48,691 bases of DNA, from IMG/VR virus record IMGVR_UViG_3300048924_000031, positions 1 to 48,691 of that record. The stretch is one strand, 5' to 3'. Below are positions 21,697 to 30,183 of the stretch, one piece after another. Within the stretch, counting starts at the first letter, position 1. Each line of letters begins with the position of its first letter. A model generated the notes under the pieces. That model made no database searches, had not been told where the DNA came from, and saw only the letters and a list, made by a program, of their open reading frames with translations. Made by a program: the position numbers and the translations under genes. Origin of the DNA: a virus.

Positions 21697-22704
21697 TTAG
21701 CCTTTGGTGAACTGGGCATAGCCCGCGTTACCAGCATAATCGCGCTTGAACTGCGGCGCTACTGCGGTCATGATCTGGAAGCTGTACTCGTCGGTGAAGT
21801 TTTTACGTTCAATCGGCATGGTGGTTACAGGCATACCAGTCAGGATCTCAACAACGCGACGCTCTTTGACCACTGCCAGAATTTCGTTAGCAGGTACTGC
21901 GGTCGAAGGAACGATTGCCAGAACGCCAGGAATTGCCATTACGCGATTCAGGATAGTGTTCTGTGGAGCTGCGGTCACGTAGTCAGCTACCGACATAGCG
22001 AACCAGTCGCCATAGTTCAGGTAGATGGTAACGCCGCCGTAGAAGTTCTTAGCCTGGAGGCCTTGCAGAACTTTGGTGATTGCGGTTACCCACTGAGCGC
22101 CGGTAGCGGTTACCAGATCAACGTTACCAAACAAGCCGGTAGCACGACCAGGCGCAGTACGCAGACCGTAGACCTGAGCGCCGCTAACGTTGAACTTGGT
22201 GTCGCCGTTAACAACCAAATCCTCGAGTTTTTCGATGATGCGCCGATTACCGTTGTCACGAGTAGCGGCATCCAGATACTGCCAGCCACCATCTTGACGA
22301 GCGGCTTCAACATCGCGCCAGCCGAAGGTGAAGGTAGTGTCATAGATCGGCAGCGGAGTACCTTCGTAATCCAGTACTGGCGCATCTGCCTTGGCACGGC
22401 TGCGACCATCAAGCGAGCTGTTAACTTCGCCCGAGTCGGAGACCTTGGAGAAGTAGTTCAGAACCTTGCCAATTGGCACGTTCTTTTGCAGGCTGGACAA
22501 GTCGGTGAACACACCCAATGCAGCACGCTGCAAGGTGATCAAGTCTTGGTCATAGGTAGCCCATGCATCACGAGGGATGGTATAGGCGTTACCGATCAGC
22601 TCGCCTTCGCTTTCTTTTGCGAGACGTTCCTGGCGGGCGTTGTGAGCGCGGCGCTTGCCGATAACGGCCGCTTCCTGCTCTTTGTTAAAGGTCAAAATAG
22701 GCAT
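21697..22704 (-). CDS. Major capsid protein
   Basis: 335 aa, follows the scaffold/protease and decoration-like genes, and is followed by a strong terminator. Family not verified. Confidence 0.8.
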   Translation of the reverse strand: MPILTFNKEQEAAVIGKRRAHNARQERLAKESEGELIGNAYTIPRDAWATYDQDLITLQRAALGVFTDLSSLQKNVPIGKVLNYFSKVSDSGEVNSSLDGRSRAKADAPVLDYEGTPLPIYDTTFTFGWRDVEAARQDGGWQYLDAATRDNGNRRIIEKLEDLVVNGDTKFNVSGAQVYGLRTAPGRATGLFGNVDLVTATGAQWVTAITKVLQGLQAKNFYGGVTIYLNYGDWFAMSVADYVTAAPQNTILNRVMAIPGVLAIVPSTAVPANEILAVVKERRVVEILTGMPVTTMPIERKNFTDEYSFQIMTAVAPQFKRDYAGNAGYAQFTKG

Positions 22705-22710
22705 GTCTTA

Positions 22711-23142
22711 TTACACCACGTAGGAGTTAGCGAGGATGCGGACGTCACCGAGGCCGTTCGCAGCGATGGCGCGGGAAGCTGCCTCGTCGAATACGGCTAC
22801 AGCTACTTCACCGGTTGCGGCTGCCTTGAACTGACCGTTGACGATGCTCAGCATTGCGCCCGGTGCATAGGTGGCAGCAGCGAAGCGAACGTTGAACTCG
22901 TACTGCGGAACAGGCTTGAATGCCTCGCCAGTTTCGCCAGCAGGAACAGCGGTGTCCACGGTTTCGCCGATGTAGGCGCGGTTATGGGTGATGAAGAAGT
23001 CAACCTTAGAGGTTGCAGCCAACACGAACTGACCAGCAGTAATCGACACAGCCAAGCCGGGCAAGGTGGCAGCGGTGAACTTCAGAGTGCGCGAATCAGG
23101 CTGTGCAAGATGCACAGGACCACGCCAGATAACGTTAGCCAT
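22711..23142 (-). CDS. Head decoration / cement-like protein
   Basis: 143 aa, Ala/Gly/Val-rich beta-type sequence between the scaffold-protease and capsid genes. Function inferred from position. Confidence 0.5.
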   Translation of the reverse strand: MANVIWRGPVHLAQPDSRTLKFTAATLPGLAVSITAGQFVLAATSKVDFFITHNRAYIGETVDTAVPAGETGEAFKPVPQYEFNVRFAAATYAPGAMLSIVNGQFKAAATGEVAVAVFDEAASRAIAANGLGDVRILANSYVV

Positions 23143-24467
23143 TATTTGGCCTCCTGATCAGCTTGGTTCAAGCTATAGCCTTCGAACTCGTCTTTGGCGT
23201 TGGTTGCAACGGAGCCAGACAAGATGCCAGCAGCGGTTTGAACGCCAACATACATTGCGTCCAGAGCTTCACCGCTCAAGGCGTTTGCAACAACTTCGCC
23301 GTGAACTTTGGCGACTGCGGCACGCTTGTCTTTCAGGCCGGATTCAGCGGCTTCGTTCAGCTTTGCATTTACAGCAGTAAGCGCCTCGGCATTTTTAGCT
23401 TCAAGAGCTGCAAGCGCCGTATTGAATGCGCCCTGCAACTTATCGGCCTGCGCATCAAGCGCGGCTTGCAGTTCTTCAGGTTTCATATCGGGTGTTTCCT
23501 CGATCACATTAGCCACGACTGGCTGTTTAGTTTTGGTACTGAAATATTTTAGCACGCTTCGGACGTGCTCAATCATGGAGTTAGTTTTGACCTTGTACGA
23601 CGTTTCAACAGTTACTACTTTCGATTCGCCAGTGAGGATTGGGTTGTCACCCTCATAGTGATAGTCGATGGTGTAAGTGCCTTCTGGCGTTACGTAGATC
23701 AGTGCGCGATCATCAAAGTCTTGCACGTATGCGTAACTGTCCGATGTTGCGAATCGCTCCTTGACTGCCTCGCTCAAGATGGCAAGTTTCTCGCCATATG
23801 AGTCGTCTAGGGCGTCTTCGTTGGCTTCGTCGAGCTTCGAGTTGATAACCATCTCGCAGTTCACCGCAATAGCGATCTCATCACCGCCAGCGCCATTCTC
23901 GTGAAACAGGATAGCCAAGTGATCGTATGCCTGATTAGCCGCTCGCCATGTGTATTTCTTGCCGCGAGACTCGCCGTTAGCCTGGACTCGATTAGTCATC
24001 AAGCCGGTAGACATGTGAATAGGATCAGGCTTCTCTCCATTCTCTACCTTGCCAACCCAGTTAAGCAGCAGAACGCCGTCATCGTGGGCGTTGGCAACGC
24101 GCTCATTAATCATCACATCAACAAAGTAGTCTGAGCCTGCCTTGCGCACGTTCTGAGCGTGAACGCCACCGTAGTGCTTACCTAGCGCCACTGCTACATC
24201 AGCGCTGTCTAGCTGGCTAATAGCGACGTATTCGCCATTAACCTCTGGATGGCGGAATGGCATAAGCCGACCGTCCATCGACGGATAGCCTTTCTCGTTG
24301 TCTTCGGCGGCATACAAGCCACCATTGAGCACGACACCATCGGTCATCCATAGCACGTTCTTGATGATGGCGTATTTCTCGCCATCGATCTCAGTACGAT
24401 TAATGGTGACGGACGCCGCGTTGATCGCGGTAAGGATATTAACCCTTGTCTTTTTCATTAAATCCAT
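23142..24467 (-). CDS. Prohead protease / scaffolding fusion-like protein
   Basis: Position upstream of the capsid genes. The C-terminal third is an Ala/Lys/Glu coiled coil (EELQAALDAQADKLQGAFNTALAALEAKNAEALTAVNAKLNEAAE). Confidence 0.6.
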   Translation of the reverse strand: MDLMKKTRVNILTAINAASVTINRTEIDGEKYAIIKNVLWMTDGVVLNGGLYAAEDNEKGYPSMDGRLMPFRHPEVNGEYVAISQLDSADVAVALGKHYGGVHAQNVRKAGSDYFVDVMINERVANAHDDGVLLLNWVGKVENGEKPDPIHMSTGLMTNRVQANGESRGKKYTWRAANQAYDHLAILFHENGAGGDEIAIAVNCEMVINSKLDEANEDALDDSYGEKLAILSEAVKERFATSDSYAYVQDFDDRALIYVTPEGTYTIDYHYEGDNPILTGESKVVTVETSYKVKTNSMIEHVRSVLKYFSTKTKQPVVANVIEETPDMKPEELQAALDAQADKLQGAFNTALAALEAKNAEALTAVNAKLNEAAESGLKDKRAAVAKVHGEVVANALSGEALDAMYVGVQTAAGILSGSVATNAKDEFEGYSLNQADQEAK

Positions 24468-25586: not shown

Positions 25587-26957
25587 ATGACTGTGAAACG
25601 CACGCCTGCACTAGAGATGGCGCTTAACTCGGCACTGAGCGAGCGTCAGGCTGTGGCTAGCCGTCAGTCGCTGCTTATGGGTGGCATTGATAACAAACGC
25701 CCTGATGCCTGGTGCAGCTATGGTTACAAGGAAACGCTGTGCTTCAATGACTACTATCGCCTGTTCGAGCGAGGCGGCATTGCTCACGGCGCAGTAATGA
25801 CGCTGAATGAGGCGTGCTGGTCTACTGATCCCGAGGTTATTGAGGGCGACGAAGAAGATCGCGCCGAAGCTCCGACCGCTTGGGAGAAACAGTTCAAGAA
25901 GCTAGCCAAGCGCCTGAAGCTGTGGGAGAAGTTCCGTGATGCGGATATGCGCCGTCTTGTTGGTCGCTATTCGTGCATCCTCCTGCAATTCAAGGACTCG
26001 AAGCAATGGGATCAGCCAGTCGGCAAGGCATCTGAACAGCAACTGATCAACCTAATTCCAGCATGGGAGGCGCAGATTCGTGTTGCGTCTTGGTACGATA
26101 ACCCAGTAGACCCTAACTTCGGCAAGCCTAAAGAGTTCATCTACTCAGAAAATGCTCTGCATGAAAACTTTCAGGCTGAGCCAGGCCGTATTATCACCGT
26201 GCATCCTGACCGCGTTGTCGTGATTGGTGACATGCGCAACGGTATTCCGTTCCTGCAAGCTGGTTTCAACGACTGCGTGAACATGGAGAAGGTTCTCGGA
26301 GGCTCGGGTGAATCGTTCCTGAAGAACGCTAGCCGTCAATTGGCTATCAACTTTGATAAGGAGGTTGACCTTTCCGCCATTGCCCGCGCACACGGGGTAG
26401 CTGAGGGCGAACTACAAGAGATCTTCGATGAAGTAACTCGCGGCATGAACCGTGGGCAGGATCAGACGGTAATCACTAAGGGCGCTACTGTAACGCCTCT
26501 GGTGGCTAACGTTCCAGATCCTATCCCAGCCTTCGACGTATCGCTGCAATCGTTCTGCGCCTCTATCCGTATCCCGTCCAAGATCATCGTTGGCAATCAG
26601 ACTGGCGAGCGTGCCTCGACTGAAGACCAGAAGACGTTCAATAAGCGCTCACAGGGTCGCCGGGTTAGCCTGCTATCGTCGGACATTGAGACGTTCGTTG
26701 ATCATCTGATGCGACTTGGTGTTCTGCTGACTCTGGAATATTCGGTTTGCTGGGACAACCTGGCCGAGGCTAGCAAAGATGAGATGATTAGCATTGTCGT
26801 CAAGATGGCAGACGTGAACAGCAAGATGCTTGCGTCTGGGCAGCCAGTGTTTACGGCTGAAGAGATGCGCGAGGTGGGTGGCTATGACAACGATGTTGAG
26901 TTACCGCCGTTGCCAGACGTGAATCCGCCTGATGAACCATCGGTTCCAGCGCAATAG
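25587..26957 (+). CDS. Portal protein
   Basis: 456 aa, immediately upstream of the SPP1 gp7/Mu F-type gene (the classic pair). N-terminal region resembles DUF1073-type portals from memory. Confidence 0.75.
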   Translation: MTVKRTPALEMALNSALSERQAVASRQSLLMGGIDNKRPDAWCSYGYKETLCFNDYYRLFERGGIAHGAVMTLNEACWSTDPEVIEGDEEDRAEAPTAWEKQFKKLAKRLKLWEKFRDADMRRLVGRYSCILLQFKDSKQWDQPVGKASEQQLINLIPAWEAQIRVASWYDNPVDPNFGKPKEFIYSENALHENFQAEPGRIITVHPDRVVVIGDMRNGIPFLQAGFNDCVNMEKVLGGSGESFLKNASRQLAINFDKEVDLSAIARAHGVAEGELQEIFDEVTRGMNRGQDQTVITKGATVTPLVANVPDPIPAFDVSLQSFCASIRIPSKIIVGNQTGERASTEDQKTFNKRSQGRRVSLLSSDIETFVDHLMRLGVLLTLEYSVCWDNLAEASKDEMISIVVKMADVNSKMLASGQPVFTAEEMREVGGYDNDVELPPLPDVNPPDEPSVPAQ

Positions 26958-26961
26958 AAAA

Positions 26962-26990
26962 AGGCCTCTTAATTGAGGCCTTTCTTTTTA
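26962..26990. terminator. Bidirectional terminator after the portal gene
   Basis: aggcctc-ttaatt-gaggcct followed by TTCTTTTT. The preceding context TAGAAAAAGGCC is shared with the terminator at 29183. Confidence 0.8.
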
Positions 26991-27260
26991 CTCGTAAACG
27001 ACAGTGGTTGTCGTTACCTGCTTCTCTGTTCGCTTTAGACCTTCCTGCTGGATTTCGATTTGGTCGCGGCCATTGTCGTAATCTTGGTAGGCGAACACGA
27101 GAGCGTAAGTGTCTTCCTCTTTTTTCTTGATGTGGAAACTAACCAGTGCGCCACGCTTGTGAGTTTCTTCATCGTAATCGTATTCGGTGTCTTCGTCGTA
27201 GCCGTTAGCCTCGCACCAGTCATAGAATTCGCTGTTTGTATCAAGGTAGATCGTTGTCAT
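26988..27260 (-). CDS. Hypothetical acidic protein, 90 aa
   Basis: GGAGG RBS. Lone minus-strand gene between the two plus-strand cassettes. Confidence 0.6.
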   Translation of the reverse strand: MTTIYLDTNSEFYDWCEANGYDEDTEYDYDEETHKRGALVSFHIKKKEEDTYALVFAYQDYDNGRDQIEIQQEGLKRTEKQVTTTTVVYE

Positions 27261-27261
27261 T

Positions 27262-27290
27262 TTGTAGCCTCCAGTGGATTCGCGTACAAT
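27262..27290 (+). promoter_or_regulatory. Sigma70-type promoter TTGTAG-17-TACAAT for the head-morphogenesis gene
   Basis: Hexamers and spacing read directly, 37 nt upstream of ATG 27327. Confidence 0.5.
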
Positions 27291-27326
27291 CTACCCCAAG
27301 CCCAACGAATAGCGCAAGGATTATTT

Positions 27327-29177
27327 ATGGCCGGTTCTCCCGTGCTTCCCCGTTCACTTTCTGACCCGACCGGCCAAGACTCACGCGAGCGCAAGGCAAT
27401 CAAAGACTTCGACCGCCGAGTTAACGCAATCGGAAAAGAAGTCCTGCGTATCCTTGGCGAACAGAACTACACGGTCGTTACGCTGAATGCTATCGAGATT
27501 AACGCATCGACGTATCAGTTCGCCTTGGATCAAGCGATTCTGTCAGGTATCAATTCTGAGATTGAGCGAATCTGCAACCTGATCTTGCTGGAAGGTGGCG
27601 AGCAGGATCTATGGTTCATGCGCGCCTATGTCGAGCATAGCTATCAGCAGGGAACAGCAACGACTGCGGCTAACCTAACTGTTCAATCAGAAGCCTACGC
27701 ACTCACAAAGCCCAGCCTGGACGCAATCCTATTCAGCCCGCCATACCGTAAGCGCATCGGCTTATTGCGAGCCCGTGAGTTCGAACTGATGCAGGGTTTC
27801 AGTCAGCAGATGAAATCGGATCTTGCGCAGACGTTAACGCGTGGGATGATCGCCGGTCAGAATCCACGAGTGATCGCTAAGGACATTCAGGAGCGTACAG
27901 GTGTTAACCGTTCGCGTGCTGAGCGGATTGCTCGGACTGAGGTGACTAATTCGTTTAGGCAGGCGCGTATGGATGAAGCTCAGGATGCGCAGCAGTCATT
28001 AGGTATTAATACGCGCTTAATGCACCTTTCCGCCTTATCGCCTAGTACCAGGCCTGAGCACAGAGCCAGGCACGCGCATATCTACACGATTCAGGAAGAG
28101 AGAGACTGGTGGGCTATCACGCCTAACATGATCAACTGCTACCTTCCAGGAACGAAGGTAGCTGGTCGATTCAAGGCTGGATCAAAAAGCTACTACAGCG
28201 GCCCTGTCGTCAAGGTAGTGACTGCTAGTGGCCGGAACTTTACCGTCACCGCTAATCACCCCGTAATGACCAGTAAAGGAATGCTGCCTGCTGCAAAAAT
28301 CACAGAAGGCAACGATCTGCTGGCATACGGCGTCAAGGTCGAAAACTCTGTTCGGGTATCTGCATTGGATGATGAACAGGTTTCGGTTGCTGTCGAGGAT
28401 GTGTTTAGCGCGCTCCTTAAGGTAGGTCAGTCGCGTCCTATCAGGGTGACTGCTGTAGATTTCCACGGCGACGCTGAATTCATGGATAAAGGCATCGACG
28501 TTGTACTTGCTGATCGCGTATTGACCTTCGGCTGCGATACCAAGCTCGCCGAGTCTCTGGATAACCTCGCCCTCAAACATTCCGACGCGAGCCTCACTCA
28601 TGCCAATGGATCTCTTTTTCAGAACATCAAGACTGTCCTTCTGTCCTCTCCGGTTTTCATGAGCATTTGCGGCTCTCTGCTTCCTGAAGGCTGGATCAAG
28701 CTTGCTGGCGCTAAGAAAAGCCGCCTCGCTCATTCCACGGTATTCGAGTCCGCGCATCGTGAACCATCGATTCAGCGTAATCCTGGAAACTCCGGTTTCT
28801 TTGCTGAGCTGAAGAATCGTTTTTCCGGCGACATGCTCGGCGTGAAGAGCCTCTACATCGAACTGATCGGCAAGGTTAGGCGGCTTGATTCCATCCTGCC
28901 TAAACCAATCCCAAACGGTTCTGCTGCTAACTCCTGCGACAACCGCAAGCTGCTTGAGGGTCTTGCCGCGCCCGTATTCTTCGACAAGGTTGTTGAAGTC
29001 ACTATCACTGATTTTTCTGGCCACGTTTATGATCTCGAAGAGGTTTCTGGGCTCATGGTAGCAGAAAATCTAATAATGTCCAATTGCAAATGCTCGACTG
29101 TTGAGATCTTGGTTGACGAGAAGGGTAATCCTTTATCACCAGGAATCATCGAGCGAGCCAAGCGCAAGCTGAAATAG
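27327..29177 (+). CDS. Head morphogenesis protein (SPP1 gp7 / Mu F family) interrupted by an intein
   Basis: ATG 27327 with AAGGA RBS; the upstream part of ORF 27060.. overlaps another gene. The extein junction restores ...ITPNMIN-CKCSTVEIL, matching the family's conserved C-terminal NC(R/K)C motif. Confidence 0.85.
   Translation: MAGSPVLPRSLSDPTGQDSRERKAIKDFDRRVNAIGKEVLRILGEQNYTVVTLNAIEINASTYQFALDQAILSGINSEIERICNLILLEGGEQDLWFMRAYVEHSYQQGTATTAANLTVQSEAYALTKPSLDAILFSPPYRKRIGLLRAREFELMQGFSQQMKSDLAQTLTRGMIAGQNPRVIAKDIQERTGVNRSRAERIARTEVTNSFRQARMDEAQDAQQSLGINTRLMHLSALSPSTRPEHRARHAHIYTIQEERDWWAITPNMINCYLPGTKVAGRFKAGSKSYYSGPVVKVVTASGRNFTVTANHPVMTSKGMLPAAKITEGNDLLAYGVKVENSVRVSALDDEQVSVAVEDVFSALLKVGQSRPIRVTAVDFHGDAEFMDKGIDVVLADRVLTFGCDTKLAESLDNLALKHSDASLTHANGSLFQNIKTVLLSSPVFMSICGSLLPEGWIKLAGAKKSRLAHSTVFESAHREPSIQRNPGNSGFFAELKNRFSGDMLGVKSLYIELIGKVRRLDSILPKPIPNGSAANSCDNRKLLEGLAAPVFFDKVVEVTITDFSGHVYDLEEVSGLMVAENLIMSNCKCSTVEILVDEKGNPLSPGIIERAKRKLK
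28137..29084 (+). mobile_element. Class-1 intein, 316 aa (Cys1 ... Ser-Asn, +1 Cys)
   Basis: Block A CYLPGTKV, block B TANHPVMT, blocks F/G GHVYDLEEVSGLMVAENLIMSN followed by C. The sense-strand linker has no LAGLIDADG, HNH or GIY-YIG motif. Confidence 0.85.
28182..29024 (-). CDS. Antisense ORF inside the intein: putative homing endonuclease (two HTH repeats plus a Vsr/DUF559-like PD-(D/E)xK core)
   Basis: 280 codons, GTG start, in exact codon register with the intein frame. Motifs: GKTLKQLAVVAGVSSRTVWDWFRQDG, GKTILQLSKETGVSRITLNRWFTMRG and EGEVIQRLGELGIAAEGQYAISKYNVDAFIHEFSVAVEIYSSH. No clear SD. It could still be a shadow ORF. Confidence 0.55.
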   Translation of the reverse strand: MARKISDSDFNNLVEEYGRGKTLKQLAVVAGVSSRTVWDWFRQDGIKPPNLADQFDVEALHAEHVAGKTILQLSKETGVSRITLNRWFTMRGLEYRGMSEAAFLSASKLDPAFRKQRAANAHENRRGQKDSLDVLKKRSIGMSEARVGMFEGEVIQRLGELGIAAEGQYAISKYNVDAFIHEFSVAVEIYSSHPDRTRLTYLKERAKHILDSNRNLFIIQCRYPNRVFDLDAVCQQIVAFCDFCSRQHSFTGHYGVISGDGKVPATSSHYLDDRAAVVAF

Positions 29178-29182
29178 AAAAA

Positions 29183-29210
29183 GGCCCTTGATTAGAGGGC
29201 CTTTTGTTTA
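29183..29210. terminator. Bidirectional terminator after the head-morphogenesis gene
   Basis: ggccct-tgattag-agggcc followed by TTTTGTTT. Separates convergent transcription. Confidence 0.8.
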
Positions 29211-29402
29211 CCTAATGTCGCGCCAAGTATCTAGTGCAGAGGATAGCGATAGATCGGAAATCATAACTGCAAATGAAACGATTAGTCGGCCGGTTATGTA
29301 GATCGGATAAGCCAGCAAGCTCAAAAGAATCCGATGTGGCGGGCGAAGCTTCTCTTTTCCCCACTTCCACTGCTTAAAGTCTAGCTTGCCGATAACCATC
29401 AC
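29208..29402 (-). CDS. Small membrane protein, 64 aa
   Basis: Hydrophobic segments (ILLSLLAYPIYITGRLIVSFAVMI). Last gene of the leftward packaging block. Confidence 0.55.
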   Translation of the reverse strand: MMVIGKLDFKQWKWGKEKLRPPHRILLSLLAYPIYITGRLIVSFAVMISDLSLSSALDTWRDIR

Positions 29403-29893
29403 ACAACCTCCCGCTTAAACCCAGCATCAACCAACCTAGCAGCAGTCACGCGGCAATCTACTTGTGCGATGTCCATTAGTTCGCGGATTGCGGATTCGCG
29501 TTGGTCGGCGGCTAGTTGTTCTGGTGTTTTGATTGCGCGGAATTCATCGCACCAGAAAAGGCGAGATTGCGAATATACGGCGCATTCATTGCCTTCGTGA
29601 TGCCAGATTACTTTGCCTTCTACCCAGCCATATTTGTTAGTTAGCGGCGCAGGCAAATGGCATTCACACACCGTACCTACTGGCGGCAACCCATCGCCCG
29701 ACCACGCTTGCGGCTTTTTTGGGCGCTCGATAAGTAGCAGTCCATATTCGCTCTTGTTTGATGCGCCATTCCATGGATTGCTGCCACCGTGATAAACAAA
29801 CCCATGCTCGCAGCAAAACTTGTAAAACATCTTATTTACTGTGTTGTAATGCGTTGCGCTATCCGGCGCCAAACTCCAATCAACCTTGCTCAT
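29399..29893 (-). CDS. Hypothetical protein, 164 aa (C-terminal module shared with ORF 41179..41481)
   Basis: Start/stop coupled. WSGDGLPPVGTV...FRAIKTPEQ...LVDAGFKR parallels WNGVWPPAVGSV...LRPIHTEER...LYEAGYRK. Confidence 0.6.
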   Translation of the reverse strand: MSKVDWSLAPDSATHYNTVNKMFYKFCCEHGFVYHGGSNPWNGASNKSEYGLLLIERPKKPQAWSGDGLPPVGTVCECHLPAPLTNKYGWVEGKVIWHHEGNECAVYSQSRLFWCDEFRAIKTPEQLAADQRESAIRELMDIAQVDCRVTAARLVDAGFKREVV

Positions 29894-30183
29894 AACCTAA
29901 CCCCGTCCGCGTCATATTGTGGGTGATGTTTCTTCAGCTCGGCAATGTAGGCTCCTGCTACGTATTCGAAGTCTGACTCTGTGAAAATGCCGTTCGAGAA
30001 GTAGGCCGCACGGTCTGGATAGTAGACCCATGCGTTCTCGGCGTTGAATGGTTGTGCCGACATACGGATCTGTACGCCAGATGACCATACGTCAACATGA
30101 GCGTCAACCTTGCCAGTCTCGTTTACTTTTGTCGCCAAGTCGATGATCTCGCTCAGCAGGATTCGTTCTTTTTCGGTAGCCAC
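29890..30183 (-). CDS. Hypothetical protein, 97 aa
   Basis: GTG start with GGAGGG upstream. Confidence 0.6.
   Translation of the reverse strand: MATEKERILLSEIIDLATKVNETGKVDAHVDVWSSGVQIRMSAQPFNAENAWVYYPDRAAYFSNGIFTESDFEYVAGAYIAELKKHHPQYDADGVRL

Follow-up and report, generated by a model that had tools for sequence, protein, structure and literature searches.

Inteins whose endonuclease is encoded outside the reading frame of the intein itself have been described, and a 2026 bioRxiv preprint is said to report an out-of-frame endonuclease in a cyanobacterial dnaX intein. Here we examine such an arrangement in IMG/VR virus record IMGVR_UViG_3300048924_000031, of which we analyzed positions 1 to 48,691 (48,691 nucleotides [nt]; "the window"). 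Its MuF-type head-morphogenesis gene is interrupted by an intein, and the complementary strand of that intein carries a 280-codon open reading frame (ORF) for a putative homing endonuclease. The closest described systems are the inteins of Gosselin, Arsenault & Gogarten (bioRxiv 10.1101/2025.01.02.630785, version of October 2025), who present 63 actinobacteriophage inteins with noncanonical endonucleases, including an "anti-sense VSR-like HEN" (homing endonuclease) and, in minor capsid inteins, antisense LAGLIDADG genes. In the supplementary table of that preprint, the description "minor capsid, MuF-like ... class 1 ... VSR -1 ORF" is given for Malisha gp5, Vivi2 gp14, Angelicage gp15, ViaConlectus gp16, Keitabear gp16, Sedona, Kewpiedoll, and others. 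The survey, as presented there, covered PhagesDB only, and its authors favor a recent, accidental invasion of the intein by a free-standing endonuclease gene. Earlier examples with antisense LAGLIDADG genes, the Ssp DnaX and Cau SpoVR inteins, are credited in the same preprint to Gorbalenya (1998) and Gogarten (2002). Vsr-like homing endonucleases share a conserved Asp, a Glu at the position of Vsr F62, a His, and a further Asp (Dassa et al. 2009, PMC2677866), and in I-Bth0305I a Vsr-like domain comes after two helix-turn-helix (HTH)/NUMOD modules (Taylor et al. 2011, PMC3239194).

The window locus has the features of the actinophage "VSR -1 ORF" inteins: the same host gene family, the same insertion site, ...(I)N↓C(R/K)C (the arrow marking the junction), a class-1 intein of ~270 to 330 amino acids (aa), a Vsr-like ORF of ~240 to 300 aa in the −1, in-register frame, and a sense linker with no recognizable structure. 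A tblastn search with the antisense protein of the window recovered Vivi2, Angelicage, Malisha, ViaConlectus, Keitabear, Sedona, Kewpiedoll, and APunk, in each case on the opposite strand under MuF. These Gordonia phage matches have 26 to 29% identity over 83 to 98% of the length of the antisense protein, and the insertion site is common to both. The initial annotation of this DNA held that no such case had been described; that claim fails because homologous actinophage inteins at the same site are already in the preprint. Judged by its portal gene, the window belongs to a proteobacterial-type phage, and the locus is best regarded as a new example of a published element type, extended to that kind of phage. 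Several of the observations below appear to go beyond the description in the preprint: the occurrence of the element in phages of Vibrio, Pseudomonas, Cronobacter, Edwardsiella, Klebsiella, Pantoea, Aggregatibacter, and Idiomarinaceae and its abundance outside actinophages, a frame-specific selection test that quantifies the switch of selection between strands, a segment in which the N-terminal part of the Hint (splicing) fold and the nuclease are dual coded, a ribosome-binding site and start codon embedded in intein block F, and a concrete pair of loci indicating recent transfer.

Other known systems share parts of this arrangement. As in I-Bth0305I and the EDxHD family, two N-terminal HTH/NUMOD-like modules precede a C-terminal Vsr-like catalytic domain with conserved Asp, Glu, and His, and the gene is tied to the inteins and introns of phage genes; unlike those proteins, to which its sequence similarity is remote, the window gene is antisense and is fully overlapped by a contiguous intein. 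The antisense LAGLIDADG inteins (Ssp DnaX and Cau SpoVR) likewise have their endonuclease encoded opposite their own linker region, but the window nuclease is Vsr-like and the classical cases lie in other host genes. The "fractured gene" split-intein loci (Dassa et al. 2009), whose endonuclease genes, Vsr-like or GIY-YIG, are free-standing, resemble the window in having an endonuclease gene with its own translation signals between the N- and C-terminal Hint parts in a phage gene. In those loci, however, the intein is split into two ORFs and the endonuclease lies on the same strand, whereas the intein ORF of the window is continuous and is read through the complement of the endonuclease gene.

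We hypothesize that the insert is a mobile class-1 intein at the MuF ...N↓C(K/R)C site and that its homing endonuclease is a separate protein of 280 aa encoded on the complementary strand, codon opposite codon. On the sequence comparisons and structure models described below, we give this reading a probability of roughly 85%. The host gene (27327..29177, plus strand) encodes a 616-aa precursor made up of N-extein, intein, and C-extein. The precursor matches the head-morphogenesis family phrog_758 (E value, 4.5e-103) and the Pfam domain Phage_Mu_F (PF04233; E value, 1.3e-14), in agreement with the initial annotation of an SPP1 gp7-type gene. The intein occupies 28137..29084 on the plus strand and, as first annotated, is 316 aa long with a penultimate Ser. 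It begins at PNMIN↓CYLPGTKV, with the Cys1 codon (tgc) at 28137-28139, contains block B as TANHPVMT (with the T-A-N-H signature) and block F as GHVYDLEEV, and ends in Ser-Asn followed by the +1 Cys; the 3′ junction is GHVYDLEEVSGLMVAENLIMSN↓CKCS (...IMSN↓CKCS), and the extein DNA flanking the insertion point reads tggtgggctatcacgcctaacatgatcaac on the left and tgcaaatgctcgactgttgag on the right. The N-extein (27327..28136, plus strand; 270 aa) ends in ...WWAITPNMIN, and the C-extein (29085..29177, plus strand) runs from CKCSTVEILV to KRKLK and the stop codon. The two are joined directly in intein-less alleles, of which a locus designated L014 (extein protein, 86% identical; extein DNA, 76% identical) aligns with the N-extein end to end and reads, without interruption, ...WWAITPNSIN↓CRCSAVEV. 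An uninterrupted ...IN↓C(K/R)CS... is found in L014 and in 72 IMG/VR loci, which identifies the insertion in the window as precise and in frame.

Profile and structure comparisons indicate that the insert is a class-1 intein with a Hint fold. The Pfam family Intein_splicing (PF14890) matches precursor residues 256 to 571 with an E value of 1.4e-5 and 25 bits against a gathering score of 35.8, and the intein without its linker matches, over blocks B and F, the KlbA intein of M. jannaschii (2jmz; E value, 7e-5). In an AlphaFold2 model of the precursor, the confidence score pLDDT (predicted local distance difference test) is ~90 for the MuF body, including the N-extein, ~70 to 80 for the N-terminal Hint part (aa 271 to 414), and ~80 for the C-terminal Hint part (aa 550 to 586), both Hint parts being modeled with beta strands. 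The top Foldseek matches of this model are all inteins or Hedgehog Hint domains (NpuDnaB, for example, with a probability of 0.99), with weak E values for this multidomain query. The N-terminal Hint region (28137..28568, plus strand) comprises blocks A and B and a conserved EDVF...DFHGD...VV..DR.L segment and is read on the minus strand too from 28182 on; the C-terminal part (28974..29084, plus strand) holds blocks F and G, of which block F aligns with the KlbA intein, and ends in IMSN. An intein occupies the same MuF site in 12 phage relatives from GenBank, and Cys1, the NH of block B, the terminal Asn, and the +1 Cys are kept, with Cys1 and block B T-A-N-H-P conserved in 13 of 13 relatives that have an intein at this site; in an alignment of relatives, N586 and C587 are each present in at least 90% of the sequences. 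The consensus of the insertion site among intein-bearing relatives is xxN↓C(K/R)(C/S), with a Q at position −1 in one Vibrio phage, and the penultimate residue, Ser in the window, is S, R, or H in relatives.

Between the two Hint parts lies a sense-frame linker (aa 416 to 547; 28572..28967, plus strand), opposite the HTH half of the antisense gene, that is predicted to be disordered: its pLDDT is ~25 and it is almost without secondary structure. Searches of this linker against Pfam and PHROG gave no domain or family match, endonuclease families included. The initial annotation had described the sense sequence between the Hint halves as featureless. This description holds for these ~130 residues but not for the rest of the sense sequence opposite the antisense gene, which overlaps the structured N-terminal Hint region including block B. 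In the AlphaFold2 model, precursor residues 356 to 414 (28392..28568), which lie directly across from the antisense nuclease core, are also predicted to form ordered helices and strands; these may represent an extension of the Hint fold or a covariation echo of the antisense protein.

The antisense gene (28182..29024, minus strand) has a GTG start and a TGA stop and, as direct inspection of the sequence confirmed, lies wholly inside the intein in exact codon register with it: nucleotides 29022-29024 serve both as a codon of the sense frame and as the start codon of the antisense gene, whose stop codon, TGA (28182-28184), reads TCA (Ser) in the sense frame. The product of the antisense gene is predicted to be a real folded protein in which two HTH modules precede a Vsr-like nuclease. 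HTH module 1 (aa 7 to 43; 28896..29006, minus strand) matches Pfam HTH_23 above the gathering score (E value, 3.9e-7) and is modeled as three helices with pLDDT values of 87 to 89; HTH module 2 (aa 57 to 90; 28755..28856, minus strand) matches Pfam HTH_3 (E value, 1.3e-4), is likewise helical, and contains conserved columns that form a G.SR..I.R motif. The AlphaFold2 model, built from nine sequences, has a mean pLDDT of 82 and consists of two three-helix HTH modules, a helical connector, and a nuclease core (aa 148 to 258; 28251..28583, minus strand) with the order alpha-beta-beta-beta-alpha-beta-alpha-beta and pLDDT values of mostly 74 to 95. Foldseek matched this core to Escherichia coli Vsr (1vsr; probability, 0.97; TM score, 0.59; root mean square deviation, 3.8 Å over 134 columns) and to the DUF559-like structure 3hrl (probability, 0.97; TM score, 0.60). 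A profile of 61 antisense sequences matched 3hrl (E value, 3.1e-7), the tandem-HTH protein 2lvs (6.9e-8), Vsr (1cw0; 1.8e-3), and I-Bth0305I (3r3p; 2.3e-3). In Pfam, the window's own antisense protein gave REase_MTES_1575 at aa 150 to 189 and DUF559, both below threshold, and eight of nine family members matched PF18741 (best E value, 2.5e-5). Among the 61 members, Y174, N175, D177, E188, and R205 are invariant, E151 is nearly so, and H193 is present in at least 90%; D177, E188, and H193 align with Vsr D51, the F62 position, and H69, and the last Asp of the catalytic set (D212 in the window) is common in the family without being flagged as nearly invariant. We take the relationship of the product to Vsr-like and EDxHD homing endonucleases, as read from these profiles, to be real but remote. 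The two HTH repeats and Vsr/DUF559-like core of the initial annotation are thus borne out by the domain and fold searches that it had proposed, in which the sense linker found no endonuclease.

To compare constraint on the two strands, a check also proposed with the initial annotation, we made pairwise comparisons guided by the sense protein, with the exteins as an internal control. The closest relative, a locus designated L013, has a MuF protein 69% identical to that of the window. In the N-extein, divergence at positions 1, 2, and 3 of the sense codons was 0.22, 0.13, and 0.62, the sense omega (dN/dS, the ratio of nonsynonymous to synonymous divergence) was not computable with dS saturated, and the antisense omega was ~1; the C-extein gave similar results. 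In the linker (aa 371 to 552 in this comparison), the corresponding divergences were 0.45, 0.17, and 0.28, with a sense omega of 0.77 and an antisense omega of 0.20 (range of antisense values, 0.20 to 0.23). The exteins vary most at sense position 3 and the linker at sense position 1; therefore, the wobble of the linker is that of the antisense frame. In bins of 30 codons over aa 421 to 540, identity was 0.22 to 0.53 in the sense frame and 0.37 to 0.67 in the antisense frame. The comparison with an IMG/VR contig, L016, gave the same picture at short range: 11 linker codons differ, none silently in the sense frame and 6 silently in the antisense frame, and 9 of the 13 nucleotide changes fall on sense position 1. 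Antisense identity also exceeded sense identity in 74 of 78 pairs among 13 diverged phages, a result on which we do not rely because the antisense protein served as the guide for that alignment, which biases the comparison. Purifying selection acts on the antisense frame in the linker.

A different pattern was seen where the C-terminal ~130 codons of the antisense gene, including the nuclease core, overlap the conserved, structured N-terminal Hint region with block B. In this overlap (aa 287 to 370, window versus L013), divergence at positions 1, 2, and 3 was 0.27, 0.02, and 0.26, with omega values of 0.39 (sense) and 0.31 (antisense), and the 30-codon bins over aa 301 to 420 had position 2 divergences of 0.00 to 0.10. 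Conserved motifs of the two strands mirror each other: the complement of the catalytic VAVEI reads DFHGD in the sense frame, and that of the antisense C-terminal motif Y.VI(R/S)G.G reads as block B, T(P/A)NHP.(M/L)T. The overlap of the N-terminal Hint part with the nuclease core is real dual coding, with both frames constrained.

The antisense ORF was intact in all 28 intein-bearing loci examined, among them 12 loci fetched from GenBank, L013, L016, five metagenomic loci, and 8 IMG/VR loci. In the 12 GenBank loci, the antisense frame is open over its full length of 233 to 299 aa, and the carriers of intact ORFs span Vibrio, Pseudomonas, Cronobacter, Edwardsiella, Klebsiella, Pantoea, Aggregatibacter, Idiomarinaceae, and Gordonia phages as well as metagenomes. 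With the codon usage of the window, in which TTA, CTA, and TCA together make up 2.7%, the chance that the in-register opposite frame of a 279-codon gene is open is ~5e-4. Both frames are open in every relative, and the sense frame is therefore held open by selection, as an intein that is read through requires.

Candidate translation signals of the antisense gene are embedded in block F (29022..29036, minus strand). On the minus strand, the Leu codon CTC of block F reads GAG (29036-29034) and the His codon CAC of block F reads GTG (29024-29022), with a 9-nt spacer between the two. Nearly all relatives have, 7 to 9 nt upstream of the antisense start, a Shine-Dalgarno (SD)-like GGAG, GAGG, or GAGA to which the block F Leu codon and its neighbors give rise on the complementary strand, and either His codon of block F yields a start because CAT becomes ATG and CAC becomes GTG. 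In 18 of 19 sequences, which range from the AT-rich Aaphi23 to GC-rich Gordonia phages, the Leu of block F is encoded by CTC, whereas CTC makes up only 11 to 41% of the Leu codons in the same genes. The retention of CTC where a synonymous change would leave the sense protein unaltered amounts to conservation at the nucleotide level, as would be expected of a ribosome-binding site.

Evidence for mobility comes from two comparisons. Between the window and L016, the intein DNA is 98 to 100% identical and the exteins are 75 to 88% identical, with identity falling to 53 to 62% some 60 to 120 nt upstream of the junction; between the window and L013, in contrast, the intein diverges about as fast as the extein. 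The L016 pattern indicates recent lateral transfer of the intein together with the endonuclease gene. Of 73 MuF homologues retrieved, some have the insert and some do not, and among the best 80 IMG/VR relatives of MuF, an intein is present in 8 and an intact xIN↓CKCS site in 72. A near-identical intein in diverged exteins and a sporadic distribution are patterns of active homing, and they speak for it indirectly.

Taken together, the matches and conservation described above suggest how the element might work. The plus strand would be translated through the whole insert, and the N-terminal (aa 271 to 414) and C-terminal (aa 550 to 586) Hint parts are predicted to fold around a disordered loop of ~130 residues whose only need would be the absence of stop codons. 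The intein would then splice and restore MuF, as the conserved Cys1, T-x-x-H, terminal Asn, and +1 Cys imply. The minus strand would be transcribed and translated from the SD-like GAG and the GTG or ATG start, for which purifying selection and the conserved SD and start argue. By profile and fold, the product would combine two HTH modules with a Vsr-like nuclease of the EDxHD/I-Bth0305I type and, in a mixed infection or a prophage and by analogy with I-Bth0305I, could recognize and cut an empty MuF allele near ...ccgaac..atcaac↓tgc.... If the cut were then repaired with the intein-bearing copy as template, the intein and the endonuclease gene would move together, consistent with the 98 to 100% identical intein in 75 to 88% identical exteins.

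Several observations weigh against this interpretation. The Pfam intein and REase matches of the window's own sequences are below the gathering scores, and the Foldseek E values of the full-length models are weak (0.02 to 0.2), though the probabilities are high. The penultimate Ser in place of His is tolerated in many inteins but is no proof of efficient splicing. At the antisense start, the window has GTG with a weak GAGA and not ATG with GGAG. A promoter scan upstream of the antisense gene found no convincing promoter and only one weak consensus match, the TG-extended, sigma-70-like TGGACA-16-TACCAT (29055..29082, minus strand; 9 of 12 positions matching), ~30 nt upstream of the start; we dropped this match as functional evidence, as shuffled sequence gives 1.3 such sites in the region. 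In addition, transcription that reaches the antisense gene from the minus-strand genes upstream would have to pass a terminator-like hairpin. This hairpin (29179..29205), found by a consensus scan between the 3′ end of MuF and the convergent minus-strand genes at 29208..30183, has a 10-bp stem (AAAAGGCCCT...AGGGCCTTTT) with A and T runs on its sides, is probably a bidirectional intrinsic terminator, and would curb transcription from those genes into the antisense gene. Finally, the low divergence of the intein from that of L016 could be partly inflated by the dual-coding constraint, although this constraint alone does not explain the step in identity because the L013 intein and extein diverge alike.

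The most serious alternative, which we nonetheless consider unlikely, is that the antisense gene is real and selected but no longer homing, its product being, for instance, a regulator that binds DNA, a nickase with a different role, or a nuclease that is decaying or has been domesticated, in an intein that is now mainly inherited vertically. It is true that the HTH half is the best-conserved recognizable part of the window's own sequence, that some family members replace parts of the nuclease motif (in the alignment, Aaphi23 and its relatives are without the H of the ..H.. motif), and that several VSR-like groups look vertically inherited according to the account in bioRxiv 10.1101/2025.01.02.630785. 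Loss of homing would sit poorly, however, with the invariance of D177, E188, and R205 and near invariance of E151 and H193 across the 61 members, three of which positions (D177, E188, and H193) align with catalytic positions of Vsr, with the near identity of the window intein to that of a phage with ~20% diverged exteins, and with its sporadic presence in only 8 of the best 80 MuF relatives.

Far less probable is a shadow ORF, an accidental in-register frame that results from sense codon usage and has no protein product. In-register antisense frames are the commonest shadow ORFs, and the initial annotation rightly cautioned that the window contains a 364-codon example. This control ORF (22063..23157, plus strand; TTG start) lies opposite the minus-strand ORFs 21697..22704 and 22711..23142. 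In a search against PHROG it gave no match at all, and it behaves as a true shadow ORF. The GC-rich Pseudomonas phage vB_Pae_BR313c (L002) has an open antisense stretch of 1,058 codons across several genes, so ORF length alone is uninformative in that genome; only the last 233 of these codons match the endonuclease family. The antisense product, however, has HTH matches above threshold, a confident fold, and Vsr-like profile matches; the wobble flips to the antisense frame exactly in the linker, where the antisense omega is 0.20; all 28 loci, including the AT-rich Aaphi23, have intact ORFs; and the SD and start are kept at a synonymous site of the sense gene. The frame-specific substitution pattern refutes the shadow-ORF explanation in practice. 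Equally improbable is a functional domain (an unrecognized endonuclease or a regulatory domain) in the sense segment between the Hint halves, with antisense conservation as its by-product: conserved sense motifs (EDVFS.L, DFHGD, and VV..DR.L) and predicted structure up to aa 414 might suggest one, but those motifs are exact complements of the nuclease catalytic motifs (DFHGD of VAVEI, for example), the sequence past aa 415 is disordered (pLDDT, ~25) and poorly conserved (omega, 0.77), and the sense frame matches no known endonuclease family. A free-standing-type endonuclease gene that lies antisense in a translated intein, as the initial annotation proposed, therefore remains our preferred interpretation, supported by the domain and fold matches, the disordered linker, the selection on the antisense frame, and the 28 intact ORFs.

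The antisense-endonuclease MuF intein is, on the evidence of homology searches, widespread and largely invisible in annotation. The tblastn search with the antisense protein found 62 phage records, in which the match is always on the opposite strand of a MuF-like or head gene. In none of the 12 GenBank records inspected is the antisense gene annotated; only the long MuF ORF is. A single-protein search of IMG/VR gave one locus, L016, and a word-index protein search with the antisense protein gave 8 matches, a poor yield because uncalled antisense ORFs are rarely indexed. A search with the antisense-protein profile, in contrast to these, matched 19,001 representatives of 50%-identity clusters at an E value of ≤1e-3 and 1,404 at ≤1e-30. 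Most of the 150 profile matches listed are full-length proteins of 230 to 310 aa, and the top matches traced to their DNA (P0082, P0083, P0084, P0090, and P0097, the last at two places) were antisense ORFs in MuF inteins in six of six cases. In metagenome contigs (L015 and L017 to L021), the antisense protein has been called mainly where the end of the contig truncates the longer MuF ORF. Databases therefore hold many "hypothetical proteins" that lack context and are intein-nested endonucleases.

Whether the element is an old, tightly coadapted two-strand unit or the product of a recent accidental invasion by a free-standing gene is a question on which we regard the chances as about even. The first view is favored because the ribosome-binding site and start are built into the Leu CTC and His CAY codons of block F, because the nuclease core is dual coded with the structured N-terminal Hint part, because one MuF site is occupied in phages of both Proteobacteria and Actinobacteria, and because there are 1,404 clusters of 50% identity at an E value of ≤1e-30 in metagenomes, with all six of the top matches sampled lying in MuF inteins.

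The surroundings of the MuF gene can be described briefly. Its sense frame is open from 27060, and the start at ATG 27327 (MAGSP...) is backed by homologues; because these begin at MAGSP, the TTG-started 5′ extension (27060..27326, plus strand) is probably not translated. A 90-aa acidic ORF (26988..27260, minus strand) between the portal and MuF genes overlaps this extension. In the region 25587..30183, portal and MuF lie on the plus strand, and the genes at 29208..29402, 29399..29893, and 29890..30183 converge on MuF from the minus strand. L013 and the intein-less L014 share this convergent layout downstream of MuF; the capsid genes of most other carriers (Vibrio H2 and Pseudomonas BR313c, for example) follow MuF on the same strand. 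The portal of the window is ~50% identical to Pseudomonas phage portals, and megablast of the MuF region and of window positions 1 to 25000 against GenBank phages found no match and thus no close relative there. In Gordonia phages Vivi2 (L003) and ViaConlectus (L012) and in Aaphi23 (L004), MuF runs on for 220 to 480 residues past the intein, to a total of 800 to 1,083 aa; by analogy with MuF polymorphic toxins, this suggests C-terminal cargo or fusion domains. InBase reportedly lists an Aaphi23 MupF intein.

In the window, 280 codons are read on both strands under three regimes: sense only in the exteins, dual in the overlap of the N-terminal Hint part and the nuclease core, and, in the linker, antisense with a "no stop" rule for the sense frame. 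The locus also illustrates how a homing endonuclease can be linked to an intein without fusion of the two, which bears on models of intein origin, both the view of "splicing domain first, endonuclease later" and the connection with the "fractured genes" of split inteins. If the element is indeed a coadapted two-strand unit, its endonuclease would possibly be the most abundant antisense-coded gene of a mobile element, and the family would provide a large natural data set of fully overlapping antiparallel genes of more than 240 codons.

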